Of a stretch of 56,916 nt of DNA, positions 1 to 56,916 are shown piece after piece. Position 1 is the stretch's first letter. Each line of letters begins with the position of its first letter. The notes beneath the pieces were generated by a model. That model searched no databases. It was not told the DNA's origin and saw only the letters and a program-made list of their open reading frames with translations. The DNA is from a virus. The position numbers and the translations under genes are program-made. The stretch is from the IMG/VR virus record IMGVR_UViG_3300006226_000001, positions 1 through 56,916 of that record; one strand, written 5' to 3'.

Positions 1-127
1 CCAAGTGTAGTTAACATTTCAAATCCGTGTCTAATACAGGATATTTCTAAATCGGTAGCCATCGGTTGAAAACTGATTTTTGTTTTCAGTATCGTTCCAG
101 TTGCTAATGCCTCAACTGTATATGGCA
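1..127. repeat. Direct terminal repeat, copy 1 (identical to 56790..56916). The contig closes into a 56,789-bp circular or terminally redundant genome
   Basis: Base-by-base comparison: 1-127 equals 56790-56916 (127/127). Confidence 0.97.
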
Positions 128-719
128 TTGGTGATACCTTGCTATTTTCAGGGTCTGAGTTTTCTCTGTCCACATGACGCACTAATCCGACCTCTGTTAA
201 TAAATCCTCTGCGGGTATTATTGGAATGGCATAAAATACGGTTTTATCAAAAATCCCAGCTTCTAATGTTTCTTTACATAATGGAAACGCAAATCCAATC
301 TGAACCATACCGGGCATTAATTGACTATACATTGCCGAACCTAATACCGACAGAGCAGGGAACTCTTTTCTCATATCTCTCAATTCTGCTGTGTTTATTT
401 CTTGCTCTGCGGCTTCTATTGTTCCACCAATGCACAGCATAGCATAAACTCTATCCCATGCTCGTTTGCCTTTGGTCTCGCCTAATGCCTCTTTGAATTC
501 CTCGATACTTGTTTTCTGGAATAGTTCCCTCATTATCAATCGTCTCAAAACTCCCCTGATTGCGTTCCCTGAAATTACAGGGACGCGTGGGTAACCTGGC
601 AATGACACAATCGGTTCTCTACGGAATTTTGTATAATTCCCAGCTGACACACCATCCGAAAATGCCCCATGAGCCAGTGGTGCCTTTGTTCTTATTGTTA
701 ATTCATATTCTTTTCTCAT
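1..719 (-). CDS. csf2: Cas7-family RAMP protein (type IV Csf2-like). This is the 5' part of a 288-aa ORF that wraps the junction and ends at 56642
   Basis: Not in the ORF track because there is no stop before the window edge. Manual translation from ATG 719..717 gives MRKEYELTIRTKAPLAHGAFSDGV...YPRVPVISGNAIRGVLRRLIMREL...FPALSVLGSAM... It stays open to base 1 and is in frame with 56642..56851. ATGA overlap with the stop of the 716..1729 gene. Confidence 0.7.
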   Translation of the reverse strand, partial: MRKEYELTIRTKAPLAHGAFSDGVSAGNYTKFRREPIVSLPGYPRVPVISGNAIRGVLRRLIMRELFQKTSIEEFKEALGETKGKRAWDRVYAMLCIGGTIEAAEQEINTAELRDMRKEFPALSVLGSAMYSQLMPGMVQIGFAFPLCKETLEAGIFDKTVFYAIPIIPAEDLLTEVGLVRHVDRENSDPENSKVSPMPYTVEALATGTILKTKISFQPMATDLEISCIRHGFEMLTTL

Positions 720-1729
720 TTTGTCTCTCTCCTTTCTTTTAGAATTTGATAACATAACGCAACAATTAATTTGCTCTTTTCTCTAATTGTTGTTTCAATT
801 TCTTTTTGTTTTTCTAAATCGAAACTGTTTAATACAGGTATGATGTGTTCACCAGCCGAAGTAGCTGGGATATCAAGCATTCCCATTAATTTGTCTGTCA
901 TTTCTGGGAGGTTTAATCTTGAAACCCTATTTATGCGATATAGGAAAAATCCGTCCCAAAATTCTTTACCTCGCTCTCTGCGATATTGTGAGTGCTGTGC
1001 CAGTAGGGACAAATACTCAGCCGCTTCTTTGTCGATATTCTCTATCATCTCTATTACCTCTCTTTTTATAATTTCTTTTTTTTCTTTTGATGGAACTATT
1101 TTTACAAGTAGTTCCACTAAACCTGTGGGTCGATGAGGTTGCAGGATATTGTTTATTTGTTCTAAAAATACCCCACCAACTTTTTCATAAGTAGCCGGGT
1201 GATAATGCCCTGCCTCAATTTCTCGACTTGAAACTCCGTGTGATTTCATAGTTTCAATAGCATTTAATATCTGTGTATGCTCTTTGGGAACAAACTCAAC
1301 CATCTTGTCATCAGTCCCAATTAAAATCCGTTCCCTATTTGATAGCCCCGCGTGTAACCAGTGGTGTTTTTTAAATGAATATGCTATGCTGATAACAAAC
1401 TCTTTTGGTGGGTTTCTTAATTTGTCTAATACTTCCTGCCTTTCTATTACTTCCACATTACCCGGTGATTTGCAAATAATTGTCTTGAATCTCAGCTCTC
1501 GTTTTTCTAATAATTCTTGACAATATTTGCAAATCAAATCACCGGGAAATAACATAAATGCGTTTATTGTAGTGAAACTACTTTTTAACACTTTACTTGT
1601 TTTTTGGGGGTCTATCTGGGGACCACCGCAAGAGCAACATAGGGTGTGAATATCCATAAAAAACTCTGTGGTTTCTTCTCGATGTCCATGTAAAAATTGC
1701 CTTGCCATCCCTTTTAGGTGTGAACTCAT
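716..1729 (-). CDS. csf1: Csf1-like zinc-finger large subunit (type IV Cas8-like) with a long helical C-terminal extension, possibly a fused Cas11
   Basis: ORF track 716..1744. The preferred ATG at 1729 forms an ATGA overlap with the ligase stop (1726..1728). Cys pairs CCSCGG...ICKYCQ near the N-terminus. Sits directly upstream of the Cas7/Cas5-like genes, and its stop overlaps the next start (ATGA at 716..719). Confidence 0.55.
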   Translation of the reverse strand: MSSHLKGMARQFLHGHREETTEFFMDIHTLCCSCGGPQIDPQKTSKVLKSSFTTINAFMLFPGDLICKYCQELLEKRELRFKTIICKSPGNVEVIERQEVLDKLRNPPKEFVISIAYSFKKHHWLHAGLSNRERILIGTDDKMVEFVPKEHTQILNAIETMKSHGVSSREIEAGHYHPATYEKVGGVFLEQINNILQPHRPTGLVELLVKIVPSKEKKEIIKREVIEMIENIDKEAAEYLSLLAQHSQYRRERGKEFWDGFFLYRINRVSRLNLPEMTDKLMGMLDIPATSAGEHIIPVLNSFDLEKQKEIETTIREKSKLIVALCYQILKERRETK

Positions 1730-2493
1730 AAATCCCCCACCCATCTTGTTCCCAGAAACACTGGGTGCCTTGGTTTTCCATTATTTCCGAGTCCAAGATA
1801 TTTGTATACTGCTACATATCCGTTCCTAAAAAATGCTGTTACATCGTAGAAATCCTCTCTCATCTCTGCTGTGAACCCAGAACTTAGGTTGAACTCAACG
1901 CCTGTGTGAATATCTTTTACTACCAAGTGTTTCATTATATTATTTCGGCATTTAGCACAGATAACCTCCGCCTCACTCTCCAAATATCTTTTCATTTTTA
2001 ATAGCTCTGTCGACCTGCCCTGCGTGTAGAGGCTATCGGGGTATCGTATCATAACTCCCTCGTAGCCTTTGTCCAGAGTGTCCTGTTCGTATCTCAGTAG
2101 GTCTTTTTTTGACACTATTTCAGTCTGTGTGATGGGGAAAAAGTCTGCTGTAATAGCCGAGCATCTGTGGAAATAATACCACTGCTCGAAACCTATATTT
2201 CTGTCCCATCTATCGAAAAATACGAATTTGATATTGTCGATAGGTTTTGTGGGGGATAACACAATTGATGTAGTCTTTGAAAAATCCCCGCCATCATAAA
2301 ATAATTCGCCATCAAAACCGTGATTATTGCCATATTTGGCTTGTATCAATTGGTTCGGTATCGGTTTACCCGACCTGCTATAAACCACTCCGTCTTTGAT
2401 GTATGCTCTAATTCCGTCAATTTTTGGTGATGCATAGACGGGGAATTTTACCCCGTCTATGTCCTTTAAATCTGTCGCTAACATTACTTGCAT
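1726..2493 (-). CDS. ATP-dependent DNA ligase (small phage type)
   Basis: Motif I SPKIDGIR (KxDG), motif III FDGELF, motif IV EGVMIR, motif V LLKMK. Start moved to ATG 2493 (RBS AAGGGAG), downstream of the previous stop at 2504. Confidence 0.9.
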   Translation of the reverse strand: MQVMLATDLKDIDGVKFPVYASPKIDGIRAYIKDGVVYSRSGKPIPNQLIQAKYGNNHGFDGELFYDGGDFSKTTSIVLSPTKPIDNIKFVFFDRWDRNIGFEQWYYFHRCSAITADFFPITQTEIVSKKDLLRYEQDTLDKGYEGVMIRYPDSLYTQGRSTELLKMKRYLESEAEVICAKCRNNIMKHLVVKDIHTGVEFNLSSGFTAEMREDFYDVTAFFRNGYVAVYKYLGLGNNGKPRHPVFLGTRWVGDL

Positions 2494-2503
2494 TTTGACT
2501 CCC

Positions 2504-2800
2504 TTATTGATTTTTTCGACTTGGTATGTCACTATACCCTATAATGTAATTTGGGTGCGGATGGTTGTCATTTAGATAAGTGTAAAGATGAACATCACTT
2601 GGGATGCCAAGAAATTCACTTATTTTGTCCTCCTCTCTCCTTTGCCCTGCATAATAGATGGCTTGATTTGCCTCGATTAGCTTTGCCAATAACACCGTAG
2701 ATAATCTATCGATAACACCCTCTGGTATTGCCTTGATAATCTCTTCGGGGTATTTTTTATACCCCGTCATCGCTAATGCTCGTCTGATTTTTGTTTTCAT
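2504..2800 (-). CDS. Hypothetical protein
   Basis: ORF track 2504..2845. Start set to ATG 2800, preceded by AAAGGAGACGCA and clear of the upstream stop at 2812. Confidence 0.6.
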   Translation of the reverse strand: MKTKIRRALAMTGYKKYPEEIIKAIPEGVIDRLSTVLLAKLIEANQAIYYAGQRREEDKISEFLGIPSDVHLYTYLNDNHPHPNYIIGYSDIPSRKNQ

Positions 2801-9219: not shown

Positions 9220-9303
9220 AAAAAACCTCTCTTTTTATGCGATTTTTGAAAAAATAAGGAATATTTCTAAAATCGTCTATTATTCGATAACTTATGACAC
9301 TCT

Positions 9304-9337
9304 TTTCACAATTTAAACCTTCCTTTAAATTGTGAAA
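9304..9337. promoter_or_regulatory. 14-bp perfect inverted repeat TTTCACAATTTAAA-N6-TTTAAATTGTGAAA (operator-like)
   Basis: Read directly; lies about 90 bp upstream of the XRE regulator gene. Confidence 0.6.
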
Positions 9338-9552
9338 CAGAATTGCCCTATTTCCGCTGTTCCCCAAGGGGAATTTGAGCTTTCTAACCTGCATAAACAC
9401 CTCTATTTTATATTTTATAAACCAATAAAAAAAAAGCCTCAAAAAAATCAAGCTATTTTTTTATTTTCCCGAAACTTTTTTTTTACCATAAAAAACTATA
9501 ATTAGCACACCCGAAGAACCCGTATAAATACACTACCATTACCCCCCATTGA

Positions 9553-9576
9553 CCCCCCATTGCTTTCAATGGGGGG
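9553..9576. repeat. Palindrome CCCCCCATTG-CTTT-CAATGGGGGG
   Basis: Perfect 10-bp arms, inside the divergent intergenic region upstream of the terminase genes. Confidence 0.8.
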
Positions 9577-9735
9577 AAACCCCCAAACCTACACCGGTAC
9601 TATATATATAATACTATATCCTACCATTGGTAATGGTATATATATTAATGGTATGTAAATATAGTGACAGGGATGGACAAGAGGAGCCGGAACACGGTGC
9701 GCAAATTCGTATAGTTTTAAAAAATCAAAACCATT

Positions 9736-14646: not shown

Positions 14647-16003
14647 CATATTACAAGCGATACACACAAAACGATGGGGAATAACACCAGAATATTTGGA
14701 TGTGATAATTGGTGTGGCATCGAGAGAATTAAAGGACATCGAAGCTGTTTTGAGTAGTCCAGCTGTAAAAAAGGGGAGCGGTTTATTATCAACAAGAAGT
14801 GGTGTAGGCATAATAAATATCGGTGGTGTAATTGCCCCTTATATGAACATAATGACAGAAATATCAGGGGGGACTACAATTGAACAGCTTGGCTTGAATT
14901 TTGGTGAGGCTCTAAGGTCGAAGGAAATCAAGGCAATAGTATTAAATATCGATTCGCCTGGTGGTGATATCTGCGGTATACACGAGTTTTCAAATATGGT
15001 ATATGAGGCAAGGGGACAGAAGCCAATTGTAGCTTATGTGGGAAATTTATGTGCTTCGGCAGCATACTGGATAGCCTCTGCGTGTGACTGCATAATAGCA
15101 GATAAAACAGCGACACTGGGCAGTATTGGAGTGGTGGCATCGTGGATAGATGACAGTGCGTGGATGGAAAAAGAGGGTATAAAAGAATATAAATTAGTAA
15201 GCAGTCAAACACCAAATAAACAACAAGATTTAAATTCGGATGAGGGTTTGAATAGCTTACAAGCCGAACTTGATGGTCTGGCAAATATTTTTATCGAAAG
15301 TGTAGCAACGCATAGAGAACGAGCAGCTAAATATGTTGAAAGTAATTTCGGCAAGGGTGGTGTGCTTTTGGCTGAACAGGCAATCAAAGTAGGTATGGCT
15401 GATGAGCTGGGAAGTTTAGAGTCGGTAATACAGGGATTACAAGAGGGTAAATCATTTATAAAGAAAGGAGTGATTGATATGGCAAAGGAAGAAAAACTCG
15501 TTTTGGAAGATGAAGAAAAAGACGAGGAAAAAGAAAGTAAGACAAAAGCTGAGGACGAAGAAGAGGAAAAAGATAAAGAAACCAACAAGAAAGCTGAGTC
15601 CGAAGAAGATGATGAAAAGGATAAGGAAGGCAAGAAGGCATCTACACTTGAAACCAAGATGTCTGGATTGCTTTTGAGCGATGCAGTGCTTTTTAATGCA
15701 ATCAAGGAATTGGGAGTAAAGGAAGAGCGTGAGCGTATGTTTGCTATAAACGAAATAGCAAAGGTTTATGGTGATAATGAGCTGGTGAAGAAGGCAATGT
15801 TTAACGAGCCAAAATCAGCTAAAGATTTATCGTTTGAATTGATAAAGGCAGAGCGTGTGGCATTGGAAGCGTATACAAAAGATTACCAAGAGGATATTTC
15901 AATGATTGCTGAAATCAAAAGAAGTGAGGGTGTTTTACAGACTGGCGAAGCAAAATTAAAGGCAGAAGTTGAGGATGTAAAAAAGGGATATAATAGGAAT
16001 TAA
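14624..16003 (+). CDS. Head maturation protease (S49/ClpP-like, gpC-type) with an acidic scaffold-like C-terminal half
   Basis: NIDSPGGD motif. Glu/Lys-rich segment EDEEKDEEKESKTKAEDEEEEKDKE. Start ATG 14624 after RBS GAGGAGGG. Confidence 0.85.
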   Translation: MSNKIPNSILQAIHTKRWGITPEYLDVIIGVASRELKDIEAVLSSPAVKKGSGLLSTRSGVGIINIGGVIAPYMNIMTEISGGTTIEQLGLNFGEALRSKEIKAIVLNIDSPGGDICGIHEFSNMVYEARGQKPIVAYVGNLCASAAYWIASACDCIIADKTATLGSIGVVASWIDDSAWMEKEGIKEYKLVSSQTPNKQQDLNSDEGLNSLQAELDGLANIFIESVATHRERAAKYVESNFGKGGVLLAEQAIKVGMADELGSLESVIQGLQEGKSFIKKGVIDMAKEEKLVLEDEEKDEEKESKTKAEDEEEEKDKETNKKAESEEDDEKDKEGKKASTLETKMSGLLLSDAVLFNAIKELGVKEERERMFAINEIAKVYGDNELVKKAMFNEPKSAKDLSFELIKAERVALEAYTKDYQEDISMIAEIKRSEGVLQTGEAKLKAEVEDVKKGYNRN

Positions 16004-37735: not shown

Positions 37736-38095
37736 ATGGATTTGTTAGTAACAATTGTATTGGCAGTGGCAATAGCTGTCATTTATTATTTTGGCAAGCA
37801 ATATGTAGATTGGCAAAAATTGAGACCGATAATGGTCGAAATAGCCAATATTATCTTGCGTGTCGAAAACGAGAGAAAGCTAAGAAAAAACGAGGTTGAC
37901 AAACTCGAAAATGTAGCTTTTACAGGTGAAGAGAAAAAGTCATTAGTTGAGAAGACTATTGAAAAAGAACTTCCAGAGGCTGATAAGGAACGGATAAAGA
38001 GAAGTCCGTTTAAATCGATTGGCAAGATTGTTGAATATGTTTTTTTGAACATAGCTCAGCCAATAATACTGGGCAGACTTGCGGGGAAGAGATAA
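37736..38095 (+). CDS. Putative holin-like membrane protein
   Basis: N-terminal TM LLVTIVLAVAIAVIYYF followed by a charged helical tail. Assigned from position and topology only. Confidence 0.35.
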   Translation: MDLLVTIVLAVAIAVIYYFGKQYVDWQKLRPIMVEIANIILRVENERKLRKNEVDKLENVAFTGEEKKSLVEKTIEKELPEADKERIKRSPFKSIGKIVEYVFLNIAQPIILGRLAGKR

Positions 38096-38096
38096 A

Positions 38097-38615
38097 ATGG
38101 AAATAGAAAGCGTGCAAATAGCCGATTTAAAACAAGCAGAGGTAGTGGTTAGAAAGCACCCTGAAGAGCAGATAAAAGAGCTTTGTCGTAGTGTCAAAAA
38201 GTTTGGACAGACGCGTCCCATTATAGTGGATGAGGACAATGTCGTTCTTGCAGGTAATGGACTTTTGACTGCCTTTTTGGAAATGCGAGAGACTGAAATC
38301 AAGGCATATCGGGTAAAGGGATTAAGCAAGGAAGAGAAGTATAAGCTGATGATAGCTGATAATAAAATATTTTCTCTTGGTTATGATGATTACTCTGTAA
38401 TTAAAGATGTCTTGAAAGGCTTTTCTGATTTTGATGTGCCTGGCTTTGATGATAGCTTTTTGAAGGAGTTAACAAATGGCTTTGACCAGCTGACAATCCC
38501 AGAGCTTGAAAAAACTGATAATTTTATGAAACAGCAGAATATGAAAGTGAAAGTCAATCGCAAGGGGGAAAAGACACTACTCTGTCCCAAATGCGGTGAG
38601 GTAATCTCTACATGA
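38097..38615 (+). CDS. ParB-like nuclease domain protein with a C-terminal zinc ribbon
   Basis: ParB N-terminal domain pattern VRKHPEEQIKELCRSVKKFGQTRPIIVDEDNVVLAGNGLLTA. CPKCGE at the C-terminus. Start ATG 38097. Confidence 0.75.
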   Translation: MEIESVQIADLKQAEVVVRKHPEEQIKELCRSVKKFGQTRPIIVDEDNVVLAGNGLLTAFLEMRETEIKAYRVKGLSKEEKYKLMIADNKIFSLGYDDYSVIKDVLKGFSDFDVPGFDDSFLKELTNGFDQLTIPELEKTDNFMKQQNMKVKVNRKGEKTLLCPKCGEVIST

Positions 38616-39454
38616 CAGATTCACAATCCCTCCCCTGCCGTCCCACACCCTCAGGTAGGGGAGGCTCTGCTGACCATTTAAATCGATTGACGACCATCAG
38701 GAGTCCAATAAACTATTATGGTGGCAAGCAGAATATGGCAAAGACAATAACTGCAATGATACCAGAGCATAAGGTATATGTCGAGCCGTTTTGTGGTGGT
38801 GCGGCTGTGTTTTGGGACAAAAAGAAATCAGATGTTGAAGTTTTATGTGATTTAGATTTTGATTTAATCAATTTTTATAAGTGCATAAAATATTATCAAA
38901 CGGAATTGTCTTGTATGATAAATAATATAGAATATAACAAAAAGACACTTCGTAACGCATTTAATCTTTTAAGGTATCCTTTCAATCCAGACACCATAAA
39001 TATTATGAGAGCGGCTCTTTATTGGTATTGTCAAAATGGTTCGTTCAATGCTGCTTTTACACCAGGCGACCCTATTGATGCCTACAATAAAAGAGAGTGG
39101 ATAAATCAAACGCACAAGGATAGATTGCAGGATGTCCATATTTATTGTGCCAATGCCTTTGACATAATCTCGGCTTATGATAGCCCAGACACTCTGTTTT
39201 ATGTCGACCCACCATATTTTAACTCGCACCAGAATTACTTTGTAAATTTTAGTGCAAGTGATTATAAGAAAATATTGTGTGTGCTTGCAAATATCAGGGG
39301 GAAATTTATCCTCTCTGGGTATCCGTCTCATCTATTAAAAAATTACTCTAAAATATTTAAATGGAAAACAGAGCATAAAGTGATGAGATTGACATCTGCA
39401 CTGGCTAATGGAAACATCAGAAATAAGGTCGAAGAGCTGACCTGGAATTTTTGA
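38612..39454 (+). CDS. dam: DNA N6-adenine methyltransferase (Dam / D12 class)
   Basis: YYGGK motif, EPFCGGAAVF (SAM-binding), catalytic DPPY (FYVDPPYFNS). ATGA overlap with the ParB-like gene. Confidence 0.88.
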   Translation: MTDSQSLPCRPTPSGRGGSADHLNRLTTIRSPINYYGGKQNMAKTITAMIPEHKVYVEPFCGGAAVFWDKKKSDVEVLCDLDFDLINFYKCIKYYQTELSCMINNIEYNKKTLRNAFNLLRYPFNPDTINIMRAALYWYCQNGSFNAAFTPGDPIDAYNKREWINQTHKDRLQDVHIYCANAFDIISAYDSPDTLFYVDPPYFNSHQNYFVNFSASDYKKILCVLANIRGKFILSGYPSHLLKNYSKIFKWKTEHKVMRLTSALANGNIRNKVEELTWNF

Positions 39455-39940: not shown

Positions 39941-41353
39941 TCATAACCAGTTTTTCTCTTTTGCTTTTTTATTAAATAAGTATATAAACAAAATAAATAA
40001 AAAAGTAATAATTAGTCCAGCAATTATACCAGCAATATCTGTTTCATCGGAATCAAAAATAATAGATAAAGTTACCACCCCAAATATAAAGCCAAAAAAT
40101 GACAAGATTACGATAAGAATAACTGATAAGGTTTTTTTTGACCCATTTATTTTATTGTTTTCTTTTTCAAAACAGGAAGGATGATAAATTACTTCTTGGT
40201 TTGAATTATGATTATTTTTATTTATTTGAGAGTTATTTTTTTCTGGATAAACATCTGAGCTTATACTCGATTGTTTATTATTAAATTCTGATACTTTATA
40301 AGTGTCTACAATATCCATCTTATCAAAAAAGAAACTTTTTGACATATTTGTATTTGGACAAATTGCATATAATTTATTGAAATCAGTTTTTATGGGTATT
40401 ATTTCTCTAATTGAACCAGGCTGACTCCCCCCATAATAAATAAATTTCAATATTTGACGATTGTTTATAGCGTCCTCTATAATAGCAATTTTATCGTTTT
40501 TACTTAATTTGCTTATCATTTTATTTTTAATATTTTCTGCGTATTTGTTTTCTACAGCTAAATTCAATGCCGTTTTGATATTTCTTATGTGAAAAGACCT
40601 TGAACTAAAGTTTTCAAATTCAAATTTATATCCCTTAATGTCATATTCTGTGAAAATAATAACACCGTCATCTCTTGCCAGTGAAACATTAAAATTTGGA
40701 ACAACCTTACATTCGCAAGGTTTCTTATGATTGGGACATATAAATGGCGGGATATTATCATAATAAACAGCTAAAAAAAACATATCCTCATAAGATAATA
40801 ATTCGCTATCTTTATAAGTTAAACCTTTTATTGACTCAAATAGCTTTGCTAAAAGTATTTTCTTTAATTCATCTGCTAAAAATACTCCTTCTTGTTGTTT
40901 TTCTATAGCCTGTCTTTGTTTTACTTCTTCAGTAATGTCATATTTTTGTAGTTTATCTAAATAGGAATTTATTTTAGTTTTTACAGCTTCAAATTGATGG
41001 TCTAAATCTATTTCTGAAAGTGCCATCTTGCCCGATGACTCATATATAACTTTACCATTGCCAGATAAACATAAAGAAAATAGAGGAACTGGCGTACAAT
41101 CACATTTTTTTCTATGGTCGCATTTTTTATATCGTCCACCAGTGAGTTTATTATATTCTCCACCTTCGAGTTTTAAATATTTTTCTTGAGAAAAAGTGTG
41201 CGAGATAGATAAAGCAAGTCCATAGTAAGTAATTGAGTTATATTCCCTCTCAAACCAATTTGGCAATTTTGTTTTGATATAATCTAAGATACTTTTCTGT
41301 AAAGCATTTGCCTCAGCTTTCATTGTGTCTGTAATTGTAATTTCGTTTGACAT
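39941..41353 (-). CDS. Membrane-anchored protein with a duplicated N-terminal module, a WYL-like domain and two C-terminal TM helices. Function unknown (moron-like)
   Basis: ORF track 39941..41359; ATG 41353 preferred (RBS AAAGAGG). Internal repeats KKCDCTPVPLFSLCLSGNGKVIYE and KKPCECKVVPNFNVSLARDDGVIIFTE. WYL-like LKFIYYGGSQPGSIREIIPIK...LYAICPN...FFFDKM. TM segments VILIVILSFFGFIFGVVTLSII and IAGIIAGLIITFLFILFIYLF. Confidence 0.7.
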   Translation of the reverse strand: MSNEITITDTMKAEANALQKSILDYIKTKLPNWFEREYNSITYYGLALSISHTFSQEKYLKLEGGEYNKLTGGRYKKCDHRKKCDCTPVPLFSLCLSGNGKVIYESSGKMALSEIDLDHQFEAVKTKINSYLDKLQKYDITEEVKQRQAIEKQQEGVFLADELKKILLAKLFESIKGLTYKDSELLSYEDMFFLAVYYDNIPPFICPNHKKPCECKVVPNFNVSLARDDGVIIFTEYDIKGYKFEFENFSSRSFHIRNIKTALNLAVENKYAENIKNKMISKLSKNDKIAIIEDAINNRQILKFIYYGGSQPGSIREIIPIKTDFNKLYAICPNTNMSKSFFFDKMDIVDTYKVSEFNNKQSSISSDVYPEKNNSQINKNNHNSNQEVIYHPSCFEKENNKINGSKKTLSVILIVILSFFGFIFGVVTLSIIFDSDETDIAGIIAGLIITFLFILFIYLFNKKAKEKNWL

Positions 41354-41379
41354 AAACACCTCTTTATTTACTTTTTAAT

Positions 41380-41411
41380 TTATAAAATAAAAACAGAGGG
41401 TATTTTGTCAA
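41380..41411 (-). promoter_or_regulatory. Candidate sigma70-type promoter for the 39941..41353 gene
   Basis: Minus strand reads TTGACA (41411..41406) followed by an AT-rich TATTTT/TATAAA region 16-21 nt downstream. Sits in the 94-bp gap after the preceding gene. Confidence 0.3.
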
Positions 41412-41453
41412 GAGAAATATTTAAGGCAGGTTTGGTTTGTAAAATAAAAAATA

Positions 41454-42068
41454 TTATATTTCGTCTTGTAGTTCTTGAATAGTGTCCTCGGCTGACATTC
41501 CTTTTTCATAAAATGTCCTCCAATGAGACTCTCCGCATTGTTCTACTATTTCAGGGTCATATATTTCTTTTAACTCCTGCATCCATTCATTAAAGCCATC
41601 GTCTTGTTGCCAATATTCTTGAACCTTTTGTTTGTTTACTATTTTAATCTCGGCTACTTTGTCCTGCTTTTCTGATGCTGATATCTGTTCACAGTTATGC
41701 TTTTTTTTCAACAATTCGGTAATTTCCCATTCATTTATTGTGCCTTGTGATTCTCCGTCATGAATTAGTAGAATATAATCTGATGCATTGATAATATCGA
41801 CAGAGCGTTCGTGAAATATACCCGTCCCATATTTTTTTGGGTTTATAAAATGCAGTTCCAAACAATAAGAATTTCTTTTAGCAAATGTTTGTGCAATTTT
41901 ACAAACTCCTTTTGGTTCCTGTGCTGTTACGATGTGGGTTACATTTACATATTTATTTATGTTTTTTATTGTCTCGTCTATTATTTTATAGGCTCTCTCA
42001 TCGAAAATTGAACGAGACCCAAACACTCCCACTGCATATCTGCTTTTTGGTGCTTCTCTTATGTTCAT
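41454..42068 (-). CDS. Diverged SLOG/DUF2493-like Rossmann protein with a C-terminal extension
   Basis: GVFGSRSI...VTHIVTAQEPKGVCKIAQTFAKRN...ASDYILLIHDGESQGT parallels the DUF2493 pattern of the neighbouring gene. ATGA coupling. Confidence 0.5.
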   Translation of the reverse strand: MNIREAPKSRYAVGVFGSRSIFDERAYKIIDETIKNINKYVNVTHIVTAQEPKGVCKIAQTFAKRNSYCLELHFINPKKYGTGIFHERSVDIINASDYILLIHDGESQGTINEWEITELLKKKHNCEQISASEKQDKVAEIKIVNKQKVQEYWQQDDGFNEWMQELKEIYDPEIVEQCGESHWRTFYEKGMSAEDTIQELQDEI

Positions 42069-42403
42069 ACCCGCACCACTTTCAAGCTTGCATTTTCAGA
42101 GCGTTTTATCATATCAGCTGTTCCTTTACCCCCTGGAAAAGCTATGACAAAGTCTGGTTTCAATTCAAGCATTACTTGATTTCTTTTGGGTCCAGCGGCT
42201 CGTCCATATTTGTTCCAGTCCGCGTAGCAGGTTGTTATTTTAATGCCATTGGCTTTACCCCACTGACGCCCTATGCTATCTGCCCCCCTGGCTCCACCTT
42301 CGATTATTTCTGTTATCTTGTTTTCTTGATGAAAACCATTAAGAAAATTAAAGGCAGTTTCTACATCGCTGTAATCTCTACCACCACATATTAAAACTCT
42401 CAT
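42065..42403 (-). CDS. DUF2493 (SLOG-family) protein
   Basis: MRVLICGGRDY...IIEGGARGADSIGRQWGKANGI...YADWNKYGRAAGPKRNQVML...AFPGGKGTADM. Confidence 0.8.
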   Translation of the reverse strand: MRVLICGGRDYSDVETAFNFLNGFHQENKITEIIEGGARGADSIGRQWGKANGIKITTCYADWNKYGRAAGPKRNQVMLELKPDFVIAFPGGKGTADMIKRSENASLKVVRV

Positions 42404-42883: not shown

Positions 42884-44254
42884 TCATGCTCCCTTCCTTC
42901 CGTTCATGACATTCCACGCCCAGCCTTGCGGATTTTTGTATCCTCGTCTAATTCCGACTGCAACTAAATCTTGATATGAGCGTGCCTTTCGGCGTTCTTT
43001 TTGTCTGTCGATTTTAAGTTTTTCAAGCTCAATTTCTTTTAATTGACCATCGATGTATTTTAATTCTCTTTCTGAAATCTCAGGTTCTGCGTTACAAAGA
43101 GGACAAATTTTTGCCGATAAAGATAGAATAGTAAAACACTTTTTACATCGTCTGACGACTGGGATATTTTCTTTTTCTTTTGGCTTTTTTGGTATCCCAT
43201 CGAGGGACCAATCGTTGATGTGTTCAATGGCACCAAATCTGAAGCAGTTCCCAACATGGTCAAGAATTATGGCTTGGGTTTTACCCTCTGAAACCCTGAG
43301 AGCCCTGCCTGCCTGCTGTATATAAATCGAGAGGCTCTGTGTCGGTCTGAGCATAATAGCAGTCTCGATGGTGGGTAAGTCGAAGCCCTCTGAAATCAAT
43401 TCGCAGGAAGTGAGGACTTTGATATAACCACTTTTTAAATCTTTTACCCTCTGATATCTATCTCTATCAGAAAGCGAGCCATCAATCGATGCTGCTGGGA
43501 TGCCTGCCTGATTGAATTGGATAGCCACATCGTCTGCGTGCTTTCTGGAAACACAAAAAACTACAGCTCGCTTGTCTGGACATAGTCTTTTGTAGTGGTC
43601 TATTGCATCGCCAGTAACGGTTGGCTTGTTTACTCTTTTGTCTATTTCTACCTTGTCGAAATCCCCCATTGAAGTCTTGACACCCTCGAAGTCAGCAACC
43701 TGAGGTGGTGCATAATATACAGGTCGACAAAGCCTGCCTCTGTTTATTAAATCCTCTGCTGTGCCTCCGATTATCATTGTATCAAAAATTTTGTTTAGTC
43801 CCTCACCGTTCATCCGCCAGGGCGTGGCAGTAACACCGAGAATTTTACAATTGAAATGAGCGATGACATTTTTAAAGGTGGGTGCTATAGAGTGATGAGC
43901 CTCATCGATGATTAAGAGAGTTGGTGTTTTTACAGAATTTAATCGTCTGGCAAGGGTTTGAATTGAAGCGACCTGAATGAGCTGGTGAGGTTCAGGGTTA
44001 ACACCAGAAGCGATGACACCATAAGAGACATTGAAGTTTTTTAATGTATCGCAAGTTTGACGGAGTAATTCTTGTCTATGGACACAGATTATAACTCTAT
44101 TTCCCTTTAGCTTTGCTCTTTTAGCAATTGCTGAGAATATAACAGTTTTACCTGAACCTGTTGGACTGACGAGCAGGCAAGCTTTATGCCCATTTCTGTA
44201 GCTCTTTAAAATATTTTCTAAGGCTATCTCTTGGTAATCATATAATTCAAACAT
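42884..44254 (-). CDS. Superfamily-2 DEAD/DEAH-box helicase with a C-terminal zinc ribbon
   Basis: Walker A SPTGSGKT, motif II IIDEAHH, QQAGRALR motif VI, CKKCFT...CPLCN. Confidence 0.88.
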   Translation of the reverse strand: MFELYDYQEIALENILKSYRNGHKACLLVSPTGSGKTVIFSAIAKRAKLKGNRVIICVHRQELLRQTCDTLKNFNVSYGVIASGVNPEPHQLIQVASIQTLARRLNSVKTPTLLIIDEAHHSIAPTFKNVIAHFNCKILGVTATPWRMNGEGLNKIFDTMIIGGTAEDLINRGRLCRPVYYAPPQVADFEGVKTSMGDFDKVEIDKRVNKPTVTGDAIDHYKRLCPDKRAVVFCVSRKHADDVAIQFNQAGIPAASIDGSLSDRDRYQRVKDLKSGYIKVLTSCELISEGFDLPTIETAIMLRPTQSLSIYIQQAGRALRVSEGKTQAIILDHVGNCFRFGAIEHINDWSLDGIPKKPKEKENIPVVRRCKKCFTILSLSAKICPLCNAEPEISERELKYIDGQLKEIELEKLKIDRQKERRKARSYQDLVAVGIRRGYKNPQGWAWNVMNGRKGA

Positions 44255-44394: not shown

Positions 44395-45237
44395 GTGGGA
44401 AAAAGAATTCGTGCCAGTATGTTACCTGCTTACAATGATTGTCCGCGCAGGGCAATAGCTCGTCAATTTCGAGAAGAGATTGAGAGTTTTGGATATCAAC
44501 TAAACAAGTCATTACCCTCAATCGGAGCAGCTGTAGGAACTGCAACACACAAAGCCATCGAGCTATATTTTCAATCTAAATTATCTGGTAATATTTTACA
44601 CTCTGAACCTAATGCCCACGAAGAAGCTATGTCGGGTCTAAAAGAGGAAATCAAGAGTGGTGTATTATGGGACGATACAACAACCAATATAGAAACAGCA
44701 AGTAAACAAGTGTGGCGGATGACAAATATTTATATTGAAAGTATCGGCAAGGATATAAATCCGATTGCAACCGAAGTGCCTGTATTAGCAGAATATGAGG
44801 ACTGGGAATTGTCAGGAACAATAGATTTGGTAGCTGAGGATGGAGATGGTGTCCGCATAGTTGATTTTAAAACTGGTAAGGCTGTTCGTTCATTTCACAC
44901 TCAGACGGGTGCCTATTCTCTTTTGTATCGGACTGTAAACCCAGAGCAAAAAGTAAACTCTATAGCGATTGATTTCATAAAGAGAACTCCAGGTCGAAAC
45001 CCTCAGGAAATGCCCATATCAAAAATTTATGATGTAGGTTTATGTGAAAAAGTGGCTTGGGTAACGATATTGAAAATCAAAAGAGATTTTGAGGAGTTTG
45101 AGAAGTCGGGAGACCCTTTTGTATTTTCAGAAAACCCAATGTCCATGCTATGTAACGAAAAATATTGTCCTTGTTTTAATACGGATTTTTGTCCGATAAC
45201 TAAAAATAAAACCGTGGAGGTAAAGATAAATGGGTAA
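44395..45237 (+). CDS. PD-(D/E)XK exonuclease, Cas4/RecB-like, with a Cys cluster
   Basis: GTIDLVAEDGDGVRIVDFKTGK nuclease core. N-terminal Cys (NDCPRR) plus C-terminal CNEKYCPCFNTDFC. GTG start. Confidence 0.75.
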   Translation: MGKRIRASMLPAYNDCPRRAIARQFREEIESFGYQLNKSLPSIGAAVGTATHKAIELYFQSKLSGNILHSEPNAHEEAMSGLKEEIKSGVLWDDTTTNIETASKQVWRMTNIYIESIGKDINPIATEVPVLAEYEDWELSGTIDLVAEDGDGVRIVDFKTGKAVRSFHTQTGAYSLLYRTVNPEQKVNSIAIDFIKRTPGRNPQEMPISKIYDVGLCEKVAWVTILKIKRDFEEFEKSGDPFVFSENPMSMLCNEKYCPCFNTDFCPITKNKTVEVKING

Positions 45238-46096
45238 TGTAAATTATCAACAATTATTTAATGAATTTCGAGATGAGTTTGGCAAGATGGCAGGTCAGAT
45301 ACAAATACTCCTGCCAAAAGAAATGTCGGTGGACATATTTGTCAGAGTAGTATTGACCGCAGTTCAAAAGAAAATTGAACTTTTAGAGGCAGACAGAAAG
45401 TCATTTTATGATGCCTGTCTAGAGTGTGCAAAGGAAGGATTGCTTCCAGATGGAAAAGAGGCTGCGCTTGTGGTCTATAAGGGTAAGGTTTCACTTTTAA
45501 TAATGGTGGAGGGAATACAGAGACAGCTTTATAAGTATGCTAATGTATCCAAAATAATATCCCATGCTGTTTATGAACACGACCAATTTGACTGGGAACA
45601 AGGGGATAATGAGTTTATCCGACACAAACCAACATTAGAGGACAGGGGAAATTTCAAGGCGGTTTATGCAATATTTAAAATGAACAACGGTGAAGTTTTT
45701 CGTGAGGTTTTGAACAAATCCGAAGTTGACTATTTAAAGAACGCTGGGTTTGGAGCAGAGGGTGCATTTTGGAAAAAGTGGTATGGAGAGATGGCAAAGA
45801 AGTCTGTTATCCATAGATTGCATAAAAGATTGAAAGGCAGTTTTGATGTGTATGGGGATGAGACATCAGAGGTTACGAATTACAAACTGCAGGGACCAAC
45901 CACACCGCAAAGTAATTGGGTAGGACAGAATGAAGTGCCAAAACTTGTAGCACCACAAATAGCACCCCAGATACCACCAAAAGAGACACCGATGCAGTCG
46001 ATGGAAAAAGCGTTGAATACTCCTCCCCCGCAACCAGCACCTCAGGAAAGCAGAACGGAGTTAGTGGCTACGGTAGTAGATGACGACCCATTTTAA
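45230..46096 (+). CDS. recT: RecT-family single-strand annealing recombinase
   Basis: SFYDACLECAKEGLLPDGKEAALVVYKG...YAIFKMNNGEVFREVLNKSEVDYLKN...WKKWYGEMAKKSVIHRLHKRL. Confidence 0.85.
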   Translation: MGNVNYQQLFNEFRDEFGKMAGQIQILLPKEMSVDIFVRVVLTAVQKKIELLEADRKSFYDACLECAKEGLLPDGKEAALVVYKGKVSLLIMVEGIQRQLYKYANVSKIISHAVYEHDQFDWEQGDNEFIRHKPTLEDRGNFKAVYAIFKMNNGEVFREVLNKSEVDYLKNAGFGAEGAFWKKWYGEMAKKSVIHRLHKRLKGSFDVYGDETSEVTNYKLQGPTTPQSNWVGQNEVPKLVAPQIAPQIPPKETPMQSMEKALNTPPPQPAPQESRTELVATVVDDDPF

Positions 46097-49818: not shown

Positions 49819-50024
49819 TCCAGCTCCTCAGTGATGAACAAATATACTCTTTGCGTTATAATGCTAAATAATTTTTGACAATATTTACATCGCATTTTAG
49901 TATACCAATAGAAAAGACATAAATCTGATTTTGTGCAATTTTTAAGTCTATTCATCCTATCACAATACGGGCATACTGGGTTGTTTGTTTTCTCGTATCG
50001 TGTAAAATTTTCAGGTATTTTCAT
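49815..50024 (-). CDS. Zinc-ribbon small protein
   Basis: ORF track 49815..50207. Start set to ATG 50024 (ATGA overlap with the Gp37/Gp68 stop). CPYCDR...CKYCQ. Confidence 0.55.
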   Translation of the reverse strand: MKIPENFTRYEKTNNPVCPYCDRMNRLKNCTKSDLCLFYWYTKMRCKYCQKLFSIITQRVYLFITEELE

Positions 50025-50767
50025 TTTAACTCCTTTCCAAACGGGTATTGCTGTATTAGCTCGTCCCCCCATATTTCTTTTAGGTTGTTTTTCATAAAAA
50101 TAGGGACATCGTCTTCTTTGCAGTATGCTATCATTGCATCGACCCATTCTTTTTTGGGGATTACTTTGTTTTTTCTGTTTCCTGTTTCTGCCCCGATTAT
50201 TATCCATTTATAATTGGTTGGAAATGTGCCTGACCAAAACCGCTCCAGAATAGGTTCGGCACTAACATAATAGTTGTAATCGCCTTTTGTGTAATAGTCA
50301 GCAGATGATTTGGTGATTGTCATTCCATACCAAAAATTGTCTTTTTGGGGTAGCAGACATTTCATTATTAGCTCACCATACCTTAGGGGGTTCTTGGTCA
50401 GAAAGAAATACCTGTGCTGCGGTGCTTTCTCGCAGGCTTGGAAGACGTCTCGTATCAAGAGGTCTGGCATCCAATCCCCGAATAAATCAGCCATCGAGCA
50501 GACAAATATGTTTTGTGGTTTCTTTATTTTCTGGGGTTCGTTTAATCTGCATTCATAAAAAGTTGGCTCAAAACCGTAAGGAAATGTTTGTTTCTGATGA
50601 GGTGCATCAATCCAACCGTGGATTATTCCATCATTATAGTCCGTTGACATACACCTAAACCTATTTGCTATTTTCCGTGCATAGCAGTATTCGCAGGTGT
50701 TTAGGCATCCCGTGACGGGGTTCCAGGTATAGCCACCATTTAGCCACTCTATTTTAGTCTTGTTCAT
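50021..50767 (-). CDS. Phage Gp37/Gp68-family protein (DUF5131)
   Basis: N-terminus MNKTKIEWLNGGYTWNPVTGCLNTCEYCYARK. Confidence 0.8.
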   Translation of the reverse strand: MNKTKIEWLNGGYTWNPVTGCLNTCEYCYARKIANRFRCMSTDYNDGIIHGWIDAPHQKQTFPYGFEPTFYECRLNEPQKIKKPQNIFVCSMADLFGDWMPDLLIRDVFQACEKAPQHRYFFLTKNPLRYGELIMKCLLPQKDNFWYGMTITKSSADYYTKGDYNYYVSAEPILERFWSGTFPTNYKWIIIGAETGNRKNKVIPKKEWVDAMIAYCKEDDVPIFMKNNLKEIWGDELIQQYPFGKELK

Positions 50768-54758: not shown

Positions 54759-54986
54759 TTAAACTCCTTTTAGGTAAATTATCATCTCGGCAATGTTTTC
54801 TGTTTTGAACAATACTTCGTTGTTTATTGCCCTGAAATAATGCCATTCAGTCTTTAAATCTTTTGTCAGGTGATATTTTACACCGAATTTGTTTTCTATG
54901 TCGATGTAGATATCGTTTGTCTTTGACCTTTTGTAGAAACCTAAATCAGATAAAATCTTTGGTATCCGCCTCATGTCAATGTTCAT
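54759..54986 (-). CDS. Hypothetical protein (75 aa)
   Basis: ORF track; RBS GAGAGGG. Confidence 0.55.
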   Translation of the reverse strand: MNIDMRRIPKILSDLGFYKRSKTNDIYIDIENKFGVKYHLTKDLKTEWHYFRAINNEVLFKTENIAEMIIYLKGV

Positions 54987-55195
54987 CTTGCCCTCTCTTT
55001 TAATTTTAGTCTAACAAATTCTTTTTCAAACATATTCAGTAGGTATGCAACCTCGTGCAACGATAACTCGTCAACCAAGTGGTCCCATGCCTTCCATAAT
55101 GTCCAAACCTCGTTAGAAATCGAAATATATTTTTTCTTTCCGTTTTCAATCTGCTCTGCGAGACTGATAAATGTGTTGAAATCTTTCCAGCTCAT
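54983..55195 (-). CDS. Hypothetical protein (70 aa)
   Basis: ORF track; ATGA overlap with the cysH-like stop. Confidence 0.55.
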   Translation of the reverse strand: MSWKDFNTFISLAEQIENGKKKYISISNEVWTLWKAWDHLVDELSLHEVAYLLNMFEKEFVRLKLKERAR

Positions 55196-55965
55196 TTGTC
55201 CTCCGTTTCAAGCCTTCTTTCACCTTGCTTGAACTTTTCATAATATTCTGGGTGGTAATATTTTAACCATTCACCATAACCATATTTGTCAGTAAAGTCC
55301 ATTCCGTTCCAAGTTCCGTCTCTTAAATGTTCAAGATTTGTTACTCCTAAATTTTGATAATAAACTGGGTGTATCGGAATATTAAATAACAGCAACAGGC
55401 ACAGAGTTTCCTCAGCAGTCCACCGCAGCACAGGACAACAACGCCAACTTCCATCTGCAATTTGGTATACACTGCCTTTTTTATATCCTGTAATTCTTCT
55501 GACCATACTTTCTTTCATACGGATACCCATTATAACACCATCAACATTGTCTTTTTTCATTGCCTCGTCAATCAACCTCATTTTCAATCCTGCGGGGTAT
55601 TCTAATCTACCCAGCAGGAAAGCCTCTATGTCCCACCAGTATTTCACATCGTTCCATTTATTTGGAAATACTTTTTTTAACTTTTCAATGTGTTCATCTC
55701 TACCTGGTAATGGGTCAACATAGTTTGCACAATAAATAGGGATACTTGGGTCGACTTGATTTACCAATACAACAGATGCAGTGCTGTCTTTTCCGCCTCC
55801 GCAACTAATAGCAGGTTTTTTTGATAACACTAAAAACATCTCAATGTCTCTTAGGGACTCATCGATTTTGTTTTGGAACATCTGTGTTTTTCCTAATGCT
55901 ATTAGGTCATTAATTCTTTTTTCAGATAACACTTTTTGTTTGTTTTTTAGTTCGTCAAATCTCAT
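55192..55965 (-). CDS. PAPS-reductase-family (CysH-like) PP-loop protein
   Basis: PP-loop SCGGGKDSTASVVLV. 257 aa. ATGA overlap with the upstream Cas5-like gene. Confidence 0.8.
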   Translation of the reverse strand: MRFDELKNKQKVLSEKRINDLIALGKTQMFQNKIDESLRDIEMFLVLSKKPAISCGGGKDSTASVVLVNQVDPSIPIYCANYVDPLPGRDEHIEKLKKVFPNKWNDVKYWWDIEAFLLGRLEYPAGLKMRLIDEAMKKDNVDGVIMGIRMKESMVRRITGYKKGSVYQIADGSWRCCPVLRWTAEETLCLLLLFNIPIHPVYYQNLGVTNLEHLRDGTWNGMDFTDKYGYGEWLKYYHPEYYEKFKQGERRLETEDK

Positions 55966-56642
55966 CGAAAACCTATCCCTACAGTCAAATTAATCTCATC
56001 GCCGACCTCAAATCCGTATTGCCTGCCTGCCGACATCCAATATGGTGGGTGCATTTGAAGTTTATTGTTTGATTTATTAAAGCAAAACGCATCTGGTATT
56101 CTTCTGCGAGCTTTTCCATTGTCTATTAATACACTTCTGAATTCTGCTTCGATTTTATCTATTGTCCAATCTACAACTGCTCCATTGCCATTTTTCCGCC
56201 ATCCACCAATTTGTTTAACTCTACTTAATAACCTCATTAACTCTTTCTCATCTTTTATAACCGCATAAAAATATGCCTCTGGTGTTAAAACGGTGGTTCC
56301 AGTCATCATTCTATCTTTCATTGGACCACTGCCTGGTGAATGTTGCCTTTGCAGATATAGAATATCAATCGGGTCAGTTCTTTTGGTCTGGGTAATTGTT
56401 GAAATAACAGCATCAGATGGGAATTCTAATGCAGTGCAACCCCATACCCATGTAGAGAAACAATAAGCAGATGCAAGTGGCAGGGGTATATTTTTTAAAT
56501 TACCCCTGTCTGTATCTGTCCTTGTAGGCTTATAATCGGTGTGTAATGCAGGGTGACATCCCATTAAAACTGCATCCAAATGCAATGGGGAGTGCATAAC
56601 AATAGCCGATGACATCTTTGCAGTAATTTTTACTACTTCCAT
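55962..56642 (-). CDS. csf3: Cas5-family RAMP protein (type IV Csf3-like)
   Basis: 226 aa. N-terminal VKITAKMSSAIVMHSPLHLDAVLMG, glycine-rich loop QIGGWRKNGNGAV. TAATG overlap with the Cas7-like stop. Confidence 0.55.
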   Translation of the reverse strand: MEVVKITAKMSSAIVMHSPLHLDAVLMGCHPALHTDYKPTRTDTDRGNLKNIPLPLASAYCFSTWVWGCTALEFPSDAVISTITQTKRTDPIDILYLQRQHSPGSGPMKDRMMTGTTVLTPEAYFYAVIKDEKELMRLLSRVKQIGGWRKNGNGAVVDWTIDKIEAEFRSVLIDNGKARRRIPDAFCFNKSNNKLQMHPPYWMSAGRQYGFEVGDEINLTVGIGFR

Positions 56643-56789
56643 TATAATACCCTTTCAGAATATTTTAACAAGAGAGCCTTTATATCGGTTTCTGCTAACC
56701 AATCTTGATATAGATATTTTGAAATATCAAGATTTAAATAGGGGTCAATCTCAAGTTCAATATCACCGAAACCGACCGCAGACTTTCCG
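56642..56789 (-). CDS. csf2: Cas7-family RAMP protein (Csf2-like), 3' end of the junction-spanning ORF whose 5' part is 1..719
   Basis: The ORF-track entry 56642..56851 is only the part following an internal Met. C-terminal LGGKSAVGFGDIELEI glycine-rich loop. Confidence 0.7.
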
Positions 56790-56916
56790 CCAAGTGTAGT
56801 TAACATTTCAAATCCGTGTCTAATACAGGATATTTCTAAATCGGTAGCCATCGGTTGAAAACTGATTTTTGTTTTCAGTATCGTTCCAGTTGCTAATGCC
56901 TCAACTGTATATGGCA
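56790..56916. repeat. Direct terminal repeat, copy 2 (identical to 1..127)
   Basis: 127/127 identity with the window start. Confidence 0.97.

Follow-up and report, generated by a model that had tools for sequence, protein, structure and literature searches.

A phage-borne, array-less type IV-B-like Csf module with a Cas11-like domain fused to Csf1

We analysed a viral DNA of 56,916 nucleotides (nt) (IMG/VR record IMGVR_UViG_3300006226_000001, positions 1 to 56,916; hereafter the window), in which an inspection of the letters alone (the sequence-only reading) had proposed an array-less, type IV-B-like effector module of the CRISPR (short palindromic repeats, clustered and regularly interspaced)-Cas kind. 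Bases 1-127 are exactly identical over 127 nt to 56790..56916, a terminal duplicate without strand that represents the assembly overlap, so that the sequence closes as a circle of 56,789 bp, in agreement with the closed genome of 56.8 kb proposed before. On the minus strand of this circle, the module starts with a csf1::cas11 fusion gene (716..1729) encoding a protein of 337 amino acids (aa) with a Csf1 zinc-ribbon part (residues ~1-212), a disordered linker (217-225) and a Cas11-like helical bundle (228-337); an alternative upstream ATG at 1744 would yield 342 aa, and an independent gene call takes 1729. It is followed by the 288-aa gene csf2 (Cas7), whose start codon lies at 719-717 and whose 5' part (1..719, minus) continues across the circular junction into the 3' part (56642..56789, minus), by csf3 (Cas5; 55962..56642, minus, 226 aa), and by a cysH-like accessory gene (55192..55965, minus, 257 aa) for a PP-loop ATP-pyrophosphatase-type protein of the PAPS-reductase family. 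According to these coordinates, start and stop codons within the module overlap by 4 nt or 1 nt, and the chain of overlaps reaches the upstream ATP-dependent DNA ligase gene (1726..2532) and the next small downstream gene (54983..55195). Since the 7.3-kb contig L014, from a separate metagenomic assembly, carries ligase, csf1, cas7, cas5 and cysH contiguously, with a 100% identical Cas7 and the same product lengths (337, 288, 226 and 257 aa), the junction in the window is real. Thus, the four consecutive minus-strand genes that had been read across the junction were confirmed, and all the motifs quoted for them (CCSCGG, CKYC, PVISGNAIRGVLRR, LGGKSAVGFG, PLHLDAVL, IGGWRKNGNGAV and SCGGGKDS) are present in the translations.

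The csf1, csf2 and csf3 assignments were supported by the type IV profiles of PADLOC and by structures of known complexes. Csf1 matched typeIV_Cas8/Csf1 (Csf1_0_IV, 2.2e-25) through its N-terminal residues 31-205 only, and neither Pfam nor NCBIfam yielded a match for it. Its AlphaFold2 model, built with nine homologues (predicted local distance difference test score, pLDDT, 87.4), retrieved with Foldseek the type IV-A Csf1 chains 7xg1_A and 8rc3_G (probability 1.0; target-normalised template-modelling score, TM-score, 0.55-0.58), and the zinc-ribbon motif CCxCGG...CxxC is kept in the homologues. The 288-aa and 226-aa proteins displayed the Cas7 and Cas5 similarity that had been predicted for them. 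The former matched typeIV_Cas7 (Csf2_0_IV, 4.2e-42) over residues 3-274, that is, near its full length, as well as the IV-B Csf2 chain 7jhy_e (2.6e-9) and chain 11fs_C (1e-10; a "Cas7c" deposited in 2026) in the PDB, and its motifs SGN..RG..RR and GGK...GFG are invariant across 36 clade members. The latter matched typeIV_Cas5 (Csf3_0_IV, 1.1e-25) over residues 1-203 and, in the PDB, the Csf3 chain 8rc3_F (0.011). In NCBIfam, Cas7 reached 23.6 bits against TIGR03115 (cut-off 130) and Cas5 49.8 bits against TIGR03116 (3e-13; equivalog cut-off 140), and since both equivalog models match so far under their cut-offs, the window proteins are to be seen as divergent members of the Csf2 and Csf3 families.

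The fourth protein passed the threshold of the Pfam family PF01507 (PAPS_reduct; 35.2 bits, cut-off 22.5) and matched phrog_424 (9e-12), which agrees with its previous description as CysH-like; of the TIGRFAM and Pfam checks that the sequence-only reading had proposed, the one on PAPS_reduct was positive, whereas those on the Csf proteins stayed below cut-off or, for Csf1, without a match. Its PP-motif SCGGGKDS is intact and aligns with the GGKDS of the CysH-like proteins of Rhodococcus, Thermococcus and the phage SPI1 IV-B locus, and its motifs RMKES..R, RWT and PIHPVY align with those of CysH-like proteins from other IV-B loci. A C-terminal catalytic-cysteine motif (ECG[LI]H-type) was not found in the sequence or in the alignment. 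An SGGxDS-type PP-motif and the lack of a C-terminal catalytic cysteine characterize the "CasCysH" of IV-B systems (PMC8175902), and the window protein presents both features. As the sequence-only reading had stated, there is no regularly spaced array in the phage: Tandem Repeats Finder, a repeat search and our own regular-spacing scan of the whole 56.8-kb genome agreed in detecting none. Neither Rfam families nor transfer RNAs (tRNAs) were found in the window, and a PADLOC search of 34 window open reading frames (ORFs), with those below 150 aa partly scanned, disclosed no cas6/csf5, cas1/cas2, cas3, dinG/recD or effector nuclease. The sole superfamily 2 (SF2) helicase (42884-44254) matched best a type IV restriction-enzyme helicase domain, its match to DinG being confined to residues 2-69. 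Every testable sequence-level feature by which subtype IV-B is defined was found and, therefore, the module is filed under that subtype. We are highly confident that it represents a complete, array-less type IV-B-like Csf effector, formed by csf1::cas11, csf2/cas7 and csf3/cas5 and accompanied by a CysH-like enzyme of the PP-loop type.

The gene set previously proposed (csf1, csf2, csf3 and cysH) was right, but Cas11 is not absent from it. Judging by profile comparisons, the seemingly absent cas11 is the C-terminal 110 aa of Csf1, a Cas11 homologue. Canonical Csf1 proteins (219-245 aa) align only with the N-terminal domain of the window protein and stop where its linker starts, a stretch with pLDDT below 50 at residues 217-225 in the AlphaFold2 model, and it is at exactly this position that canonical loci have a separate cas11 gene (113-155 aa). 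The C-terminal 110 residues were modelled as a seven-helix bundle (pLDDT 95.9). When 26 fused-domain sequences were compared by hhalign with 33 stand-alone type IV Cas11 sequences, the two sets sharing no cross-hits, they matched with a probability of 96.5% (E 8.9e-10) over 101 columns spanning both domains nearly end to end, and uncontaminated hidden Markov models (HMMs) of the fused domain and of stand-alone Cas11 matched each other reciprocally. Some results weigh against this assignment: a Foldseek search of the PDB with the isolated C-terminal domain (pLDDT 96) gave no match, as did a profile search of the PDB, and hhalign against only three canonical Cas11 proteins was not significant (E 0.11). 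Accordingly, the Cas11 homology rests on the larger profile comparison.

Within the fusion gene, an in-frame cas11 frame of 110 aa (716..1048, minus strand), beginning with MIENIDKEAAEY..., starts at an internal ATG (1048-1046) that is preceded, with an 8-nt spacer, by the Shine-Dalgarno (SD)-like sequence GAGAGG (1057..1062, minus). This arrangement is conserved in the 24 distinct fused genes of the related loci described below: the codon of the first Cas11-domain residue is a start codon in 24/24 (ATG in 20, GTG in three and TTG in one), and GGAG, GAGG or AGGA lies 4-11 nt upstream of it in 23; with three added genes, these figures became 27/27 and 26/27, respectively. In the same genes, SD-like motifs precede 8.5% of all codon positions, 13.5% of internal start codons and 27.8% of the positions that follow two or more acidic residues. 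Compared with the latter background, 23/24 corresponds to a binomial P of 3e-12, which is not a true probability because the members are related. Moreover, the glutamate codons at the SD site are GAG 23 times and GAA three times, as compared with 288:158 elsewhere in these genes (P = 0.008), while the linker peptides are not conserved and the GC content of the clade ranges from 37 to 72%. The internal Met is the very first residue of seven database proteins (105-122 aa), and public gene callers had taken the internal start in at least seven contigs. We also considered whether the proteins P0192-P0216 could be stand-alone cas11 genes, and this was discarded: the three inspected (3/3) were fused ORFs in which the gene caller had preferred the internal start, with GAGGAGG, AGGAGG or GGAGGA 5-7 nt upstream.

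It is known that the solved IV-B complex contains six Csf2 and five Cas11 subunits (PMC7937560), and a 1:1 fusion cannot therefore supply the minor filament. It is also established that Cas11 is internally translated within cas8 or cas10d in types I-B, I-C and I-D (bioRxiv 10.1101/2020.04.18.045682; PMC11899642). We believe that the fused gene probably gives two products, a full-length Csf1-Cas11 and a free Cas11 translated from the internal SD and start, as suggested by the conservation of these signals. A rather unlikely alternative is that Csf1-Cas11 is made only as a single polypeptide, its internal start and SD being left over from the former cas11 gene start or arising incidentally from the acidic linker; in that case there would be no minor filament, or only a single tethered Cas11 in its place. 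The relic could well have arisen, since cas11 in split loci begins a few nt past the csf1 stop and a start would be expected right after the fusion, so that the internal start could mark a former gene boundary; likewise, acidic linkers do raise the frequency of SD-like motifs and, together with the relatedness of the clade members, this weighs against taking the binomial figure at face value. However, a relic or by-product does not readily account for a signal kept in nearly every gene while Cas7 has diverged to 31-61% identity, GC content varies widely and the linkers are not conserved, nor for the preference of GAG over GAA at the site, AT-rich genes included; and the solved complex needs about five Cas11 each.

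To place the module among its relatives, we searched 5.8 billion proteins with Cas7. About 37 clusters formed a compact, close group (36-58% identity, E < 1e-37), which was followed by a gap, and canonical Csf2 appeared after it at E ~1e-20. The contigs of the close group are phage-like and present the same four-gene order in many unrelated phage backbones, the neighbours being terminase, portal and Mu-F genes in a Hadza gut contig, prophage tail, amidase and XhlA genes, holin and GH19 genes, or RecT and YqaJ genes; relatives also adjoin holin/endolysin, Lar and methyltransferase genes. When 1.84 billion representative proteins were searched exhaustively with a profile, 527 homologues were obtained; 112 of them were at E <= 1e-30 and about 100 were full-length fused proteins of 310-380 aa. 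At 50% identity, there are more than 100 clusters. A scan of IMG/VR with the Cas7 clade alignment disclosed 88 viral contigs encoding relatives, while the same scan with the single Cas7 protein gave no match. PLSDB contained 68 plasmids with relatives, chiefly from Rhodococcus and Mycobacterium (25-29% identity), as well as three archaeal plasmids (~30%). No relative was detected in the GTDB representative genomes by a scan that relies on short peptide patterns, and this absence is accordingly not proof. Among 50,697 GenBank phage records, the sole relative was the isolated actinophage Skermania phage SPI1 (Cas7 24% identity), which is probably also the sole significant structural match in BFVD. 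The SPI1 locus (L013 3774-7407; KR011061.1 32609-36242) comprises Orf40-44, all of them annotated as hypothetical, and these correspond to canonical csf1, cas11, cas7, cas5 and cysH-like genes.

We annotated 97 loci with HMMs built from those loci. Nearly all of them carry csf1, cas7 and cas5, and 78 a CysH-like gene. Regarding cas11, 32 loci (24 distinct proteins) had a csf1 with the C-terminal extension of the window type, 42 had a canonical csf1 and a separate cas11, and six had cas11 fused to the N-terminus of cas7; cas11 was not detected in the other 17, most of which show a gap of 350-500 bp. In a neighbour-joining tree of Cas7 (without bootstrap values), the 23 fused tips grouped in one clade with no intruder, and the window was sister to L015. 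The tree shows the csf1::cas11 fusion to define a monophyletic clade, so far present only on phage-like or prophage-like contigs. The cas11::cas7 fusions (L062, L064, L067, L076, L081 and L083) formed a second monophyletic clade, with ORFs of 399-430 aa in which the Cas11 domain spans residues ~51-158 and the Cas7 domain comes after ~165. It could be argued that the module in the window is decaying cargo, a non-functional remnant of plasmid origin that the phage does not use. Nothing specific speaks for it except that there is no array and no nuclease, and we regard it as very improbable: the four ORFs are intact and translationally coupled, the invariance of catalytic and RNA-binding motifs in the 36 Cas7 homologues indicates purifying selection, and both the recurrence of the gene order in unrelated backbones and the number of clusters at 50% identity go against it.

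The gene following cas5 varies. In most fused-clade loci it encodes a CysH-like protein, with 37-41% identity among them, a divergence much like that of Cas5. The closest relative of the window (L015, Cas7 61% identical) carries instead, in the same slot, a 423-aa radical S-adenosylmethionine (SAM) protein (4709-5980; PF04055 and PF19864), and L004 (11564-12238) and L017 (7529-8215) a 224-228-aa protein with the motif ILDSGAYG...VAPD. Members of this DSGA[YF] family (38-44% identical; 224-245 aa overall) also occur inside the split-type module of L074 (8387-9124); the family has no match in Pfam or the PDB and only a weak one to a PHROG of unknown function. The motif and an hhalign comparison (E 3.9e-4, probability 36%) hinted at a relationship with tRNA-guanine transglycosylase (TGT) or DpdA, a lead too weak to be claimed. 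On the evidence of these loci, the accessory gene is shown to be swappable, the position being taken by putative CysH-like, radical SAM or DSGA[YF] proteins. All-against-all BLASTP of the neighbouring ORFs disclosed no fifth conserved gene in the fused-clade loci, and no conserved non-coding element flanking the modules was found. In L001, the Hadza gut contig, prophage-like and with a fused-clade module, a homologue of the DpdA-like queuine transglycosylase is encoded at 14031-15415 (phrog_887, 9e-56) and adjoined by a gene of the Vut_1 family (PF02592), the family of queuosine-precursor transporters of the YhhQ type; the pair would hint at a 7-deazaguanine modification of DNA in that phage.

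The carrier of the module is a complete tailed phage of 56.8 kb. PHROG matches on the plus strand include TerS, TerL, portal, prohead protease, major capsid, tail sheath, tape measure and tail fibre proteins, and further matches correspond to a primase-helicase, a ligase, the SF2 helicase, a RecB/Cas4-like exonuclease with RecT, an SbcC-like ATPase and a serine recombinase. By megablast, 24 kb of the phage had no nucleotide match in INPHARED (the 50,697 GenBank phage records), and no host could be assigned from TerL or the major capsid protein, whose closest isolate matches (at most 38% identity) come from many phyla; seven intercistronic GGAGGA sites show that the host uses strong SD sequences. 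The csf module lies in a leftward block of about 17 kb with replication genes and many small genes, and gene content and strand point to an "early" operon for replication and host takeover.

Some other features of the phage deserve mention. Upstream of the ligase and csf genes, the minus-strand operon contains, between 3640 and 5775, seven copies of an intercistronic cassette of about 40 nt, in each of which a GC-rich hairpin (GGCGGGCTTATAGCCCGCC, with variants) precedes a strong SD and the start codon that comes next (GGAGGAC[A/G]CAATG). The hairpins are at 3646-3667, 4026-4044, 4344-4370, ~4770-4790, 5069-5090, 5361-5383 and 5754-5774 (plus-strand coordinates), and in the last one, inspected base by base, the stop codon of the upstream gene is within the hairpin loop. 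Four of the sites, against none expected by chance, match the 19-nt core of the most frequent variant, and this core was not found in the 96 related loci searched. The cassettes are not CRISPR-like, because they are irregularly spaced and have genes between them; they may serve in messenger RNA stability or translational coupling, or act as boundaries for gene shuffling. Two adjacent orphan DNA methyltransferases, a PD-(D/E)xK exonuclease of the Cas4/RecB-like kind with RecT as its partner, and a protein that matches the PADLOC candidate-defence families PDC-M41B and PDC-M30B (2e-38) are encoded at 38079-39454 (plus), 44395-46096 (plus) and 50021-50767 (minus). Finally, a low-GC island (39941-42394; 29% versus a genome average of ~38%) codes on the minus strand for a protein of 472 aa that has a weak WYL-like match, and may be a moron or a regulatory region.

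As to function, our tentative proposal, drawn from the sequences, is that the module could be an RNA-scaffolded platform, independent of CRISPR RNA (crRNA), that brings a nucleotide-activating enzyme, or one that modifies in another way, to bound nucleic acid early in infection. The Cas7 filament would assemble on an RNA other than a phage-encoded crRNA, with Csf1 and Csf3 as caps, and the complex would place the neighbouring enzyme, here a CysH-type ATP alpha-hydrolase that would presumably adenylate, on the bound or base-paired nucleic acid. The outcome would be a chemical modification and not cleavage, and the module would act early in infection in counter-defence or host takeover, and not in adaptive immunity. 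The idea of enzyme delivery was first stated elsewhere (PMC8175902), and the interchangeability of the accessory enzymes supports it. Extending it to the whole phage-like IV-B branch, so that this would be a nucleic-acid modification machine with an interchangeable enzyme cassette and not an immune effector, is conceivable but doubtful. We regard with the same reserve the possibilities that, in such a machine, the Cas7/Cas11 filament would present an RNA or hybrid target, with internal translation tuning the Cas11 supply, that its enzyme would be a PP-loop ATPase here, a radical-SAM enzyme in L015 and perhaps a TGT/DpdA-like protein elsewhere, and that it might mark or disable host or competitor nucleic acids early. 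Several points weigh against the proposal. This clade is known from sequences, and the "early operon" label comes from gene content and strand rather than from expression; the biochemical data on IV-B all derive from Mycobacterium sp. JS623, whose complex binds heterogeneous, apparently non-specific RNA, in work where CysH was not included (PMC7937560); no candidate RNA partner was found beside the module in any locus; and the likeness of the third accessory family to TGT/DpdA is a weak lead.

A different possibility would be that the complex borrows guides, loading mature crRNAs from a host or co-resident CRISPR system to bind or silence competing elements or host genes in the manner of IV-A systems, which silence targets without a nuclease (PMC11656645). 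The module does have the full Cascade-like set of subunits, including Cas5, the 5'-handle binder of other class 1 systems, and a real array does occur on one viral contig whose type IV module includes cysH. This contig (L062, IMGVR_UViG_3300016457_001209) carries, at 4788-9670, csf1, a 401-aa cas11::cas7 fusion ORF, cas5 and cysH, and in the array, about 950 bp downstream of the module, the 33-nt repeat GTTTCAATCCACGCCCCCGCGCGGGGGGCGAC is present at least 11 times with a period of 66 nt, up to the contig end. However, neither the window nor any fused-clade locus contains a repeat, a solitary repeat unit or cas6, and in the latter the 6-10 kb around the module showed no array. Besides, the JS623 complex did not load co-expressed type I-E crRNAs, a negative co-occurrence of IV-B with other CRISPR systems has been reported (PMC7937560), and the range of GC content in the clade implies very diverse hosts, against reliance on one host repeat type. 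In consequence, we find guide borrowing distinctly improbable. Array-like signals in other loci were examined and rejected. Those in L006, L008, L009, L010, L024, L026, L077 and L090 are short-period tandem repeats with periods that are multiples of 3 in long ORFs and most likely coding; that in L021 is irregularly spaced (64 and 54 nt) within a long ORF; and that in L034 is a run of the tRNA T-loop-like GGTTCGAATCC, read as a tRNA cluster without a tRNA scan. In this last locus, which belongs to the fused clade, GGTTCGAATCC occurs four times directly downstream of cas5 (4576-4930), and cysH is upstream of csf1 instead of downstream.

It is also possible, albeit unlikely in our opinion, that the Csf filament works as an RNA sponge or anti-guide, coating small RNAs non-specifically, host crRNAs and other guide RNAs included, and thereby blunting the host's RNA-guided defences at an early stage of infection; the CysH-like protein would then be peripheral. 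This hypothesis has been put forward before (PMC7038947, PMC8175902) and is consistent with the binding of heterogeneous 55-60-nt RNAs by a heterologously produced IV-B complex, in which crRNAs were not enriched (PMC7937560), with a phage devoid of an array or guide source, and with the location of the module among early genes and, in relatives, near Lar restriction-alleviation and methyltransferase genes. On the other hand, a sponge leaves unexplained the translationally coupled enzyme gene, CysH-like in 78/97 loci, as well as the refilling of the slot by other enzymes after CysH loss, and a stoichiometric sponge of four proteins is costly in comparison with single-protein anti-CRISPRs, a point made in PMC7038947. 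All in all, we consider the combination of a IV-B identity, a phage clade, internal translation of Cas11 and an enzyme-bringing mechanism the best overall explanation, and a reasonably likely one.

Type IV-B modules on plasmids, prophages and an archaeal virus have been published (PMC7038947, PMC10848311, PMC11656645) and, with the 88 IMG/VR contigs reported here, a phage-borne module is not unprecedented. Similarly, roles without an own crRNA, in counter-defence or in competition between mobile elements, are hypotheses already in the literature. In contrast, neither the csf1::cas11 fusion and the internal start conserved in it, nor the extent and monophyly of the phage-like clade, nor the exchange of accessory enzymes was found described in the literature searched, and these are thus the new aspects of this work; nor have we found a functional IV-B study after 2021 or anything on the PDB "Cas7c" entries 11fs, 11hc and 11hd. 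IV-B is the one CRISPR-Cas subtype still without a known function (PMC8175902, PMC11656645), and the findings presented here sharpen that question into direct experiments without answering it. The phage clade offers a compact, four-gene IV-B on a small complete genome that should be useful for functional tests; the fusion explains where Cas11 went and gives a concrete prediction, namely two products from one gene; and the exchange in the slot among enzymes of the RNA/DNA-modification type points to modification chemistry rather than interference. Furthermore, viral metagenomes seem to contain type IV modules without an array far more often (at least 88 IMG/VR contigs and over 100 protein clusters) than isolates suggest (one in 50,697 GenBank phages), and the curated NCBIfam and Pfam models largely miss them.

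The features of the window module can be compared with those of known systems. It resembles the type I-B, I-C and I-D Cascades in that the large-subunit gene encodes the Cas11 domain at its 3' end, with an in-frame internal ribosome-binding site and start, and the rationale, several Cas11 copies per complex, is the same; these belong, however, to another CRISPR type with unrelated large subunits, and the two products of the window gene are predicted from sequence conservation. With IV-A it shares a homologous Csf1 fold (7xg1_A, 8rc3_G), Cas7 and Cas5, but it has Cas11 and CysH and lacks DinG, Cas6/Csf5 and an array, which sets it outside that subtype. Closer in kind are Orf40-44 of phage SPI1 and the cassette of the Bathyarchaeia "Fuxiviridae" (PMC10848311), which are also IV-B-like, with cysH, and carried by tailed viruses; nevertheless, SPI1 has the canonical split csf1 and cas11 and its Cas7 is 24% identical, and the fuxivirus has a separate cas11 and a mini-array (PMC10848311). 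Relative to curated IV-B, the window proteins do not reach the NCBIfam equivalog cut-offs for Csf2 and Csf3. Lastly, the IV-B systems of actinobacterial megaplasmids (Mycobacterium sp. JS623, PDB 7JHY; Rhodococcus jostii pRHL3) have the same Csf1, Cas11, Csf2 and Csf3 with an adjacent CysH-like protein and, like the window module, reside on a mobile element without an array, cas6, dinG or an adaptation module. They differ in that their Cas7 is only 25-29% identical to that of the window, their cas11 is a separate gene of 136-144 aa, as opposed to one fused to csf1 with an internal start, and they are carried by a plasmid instead of a phage.

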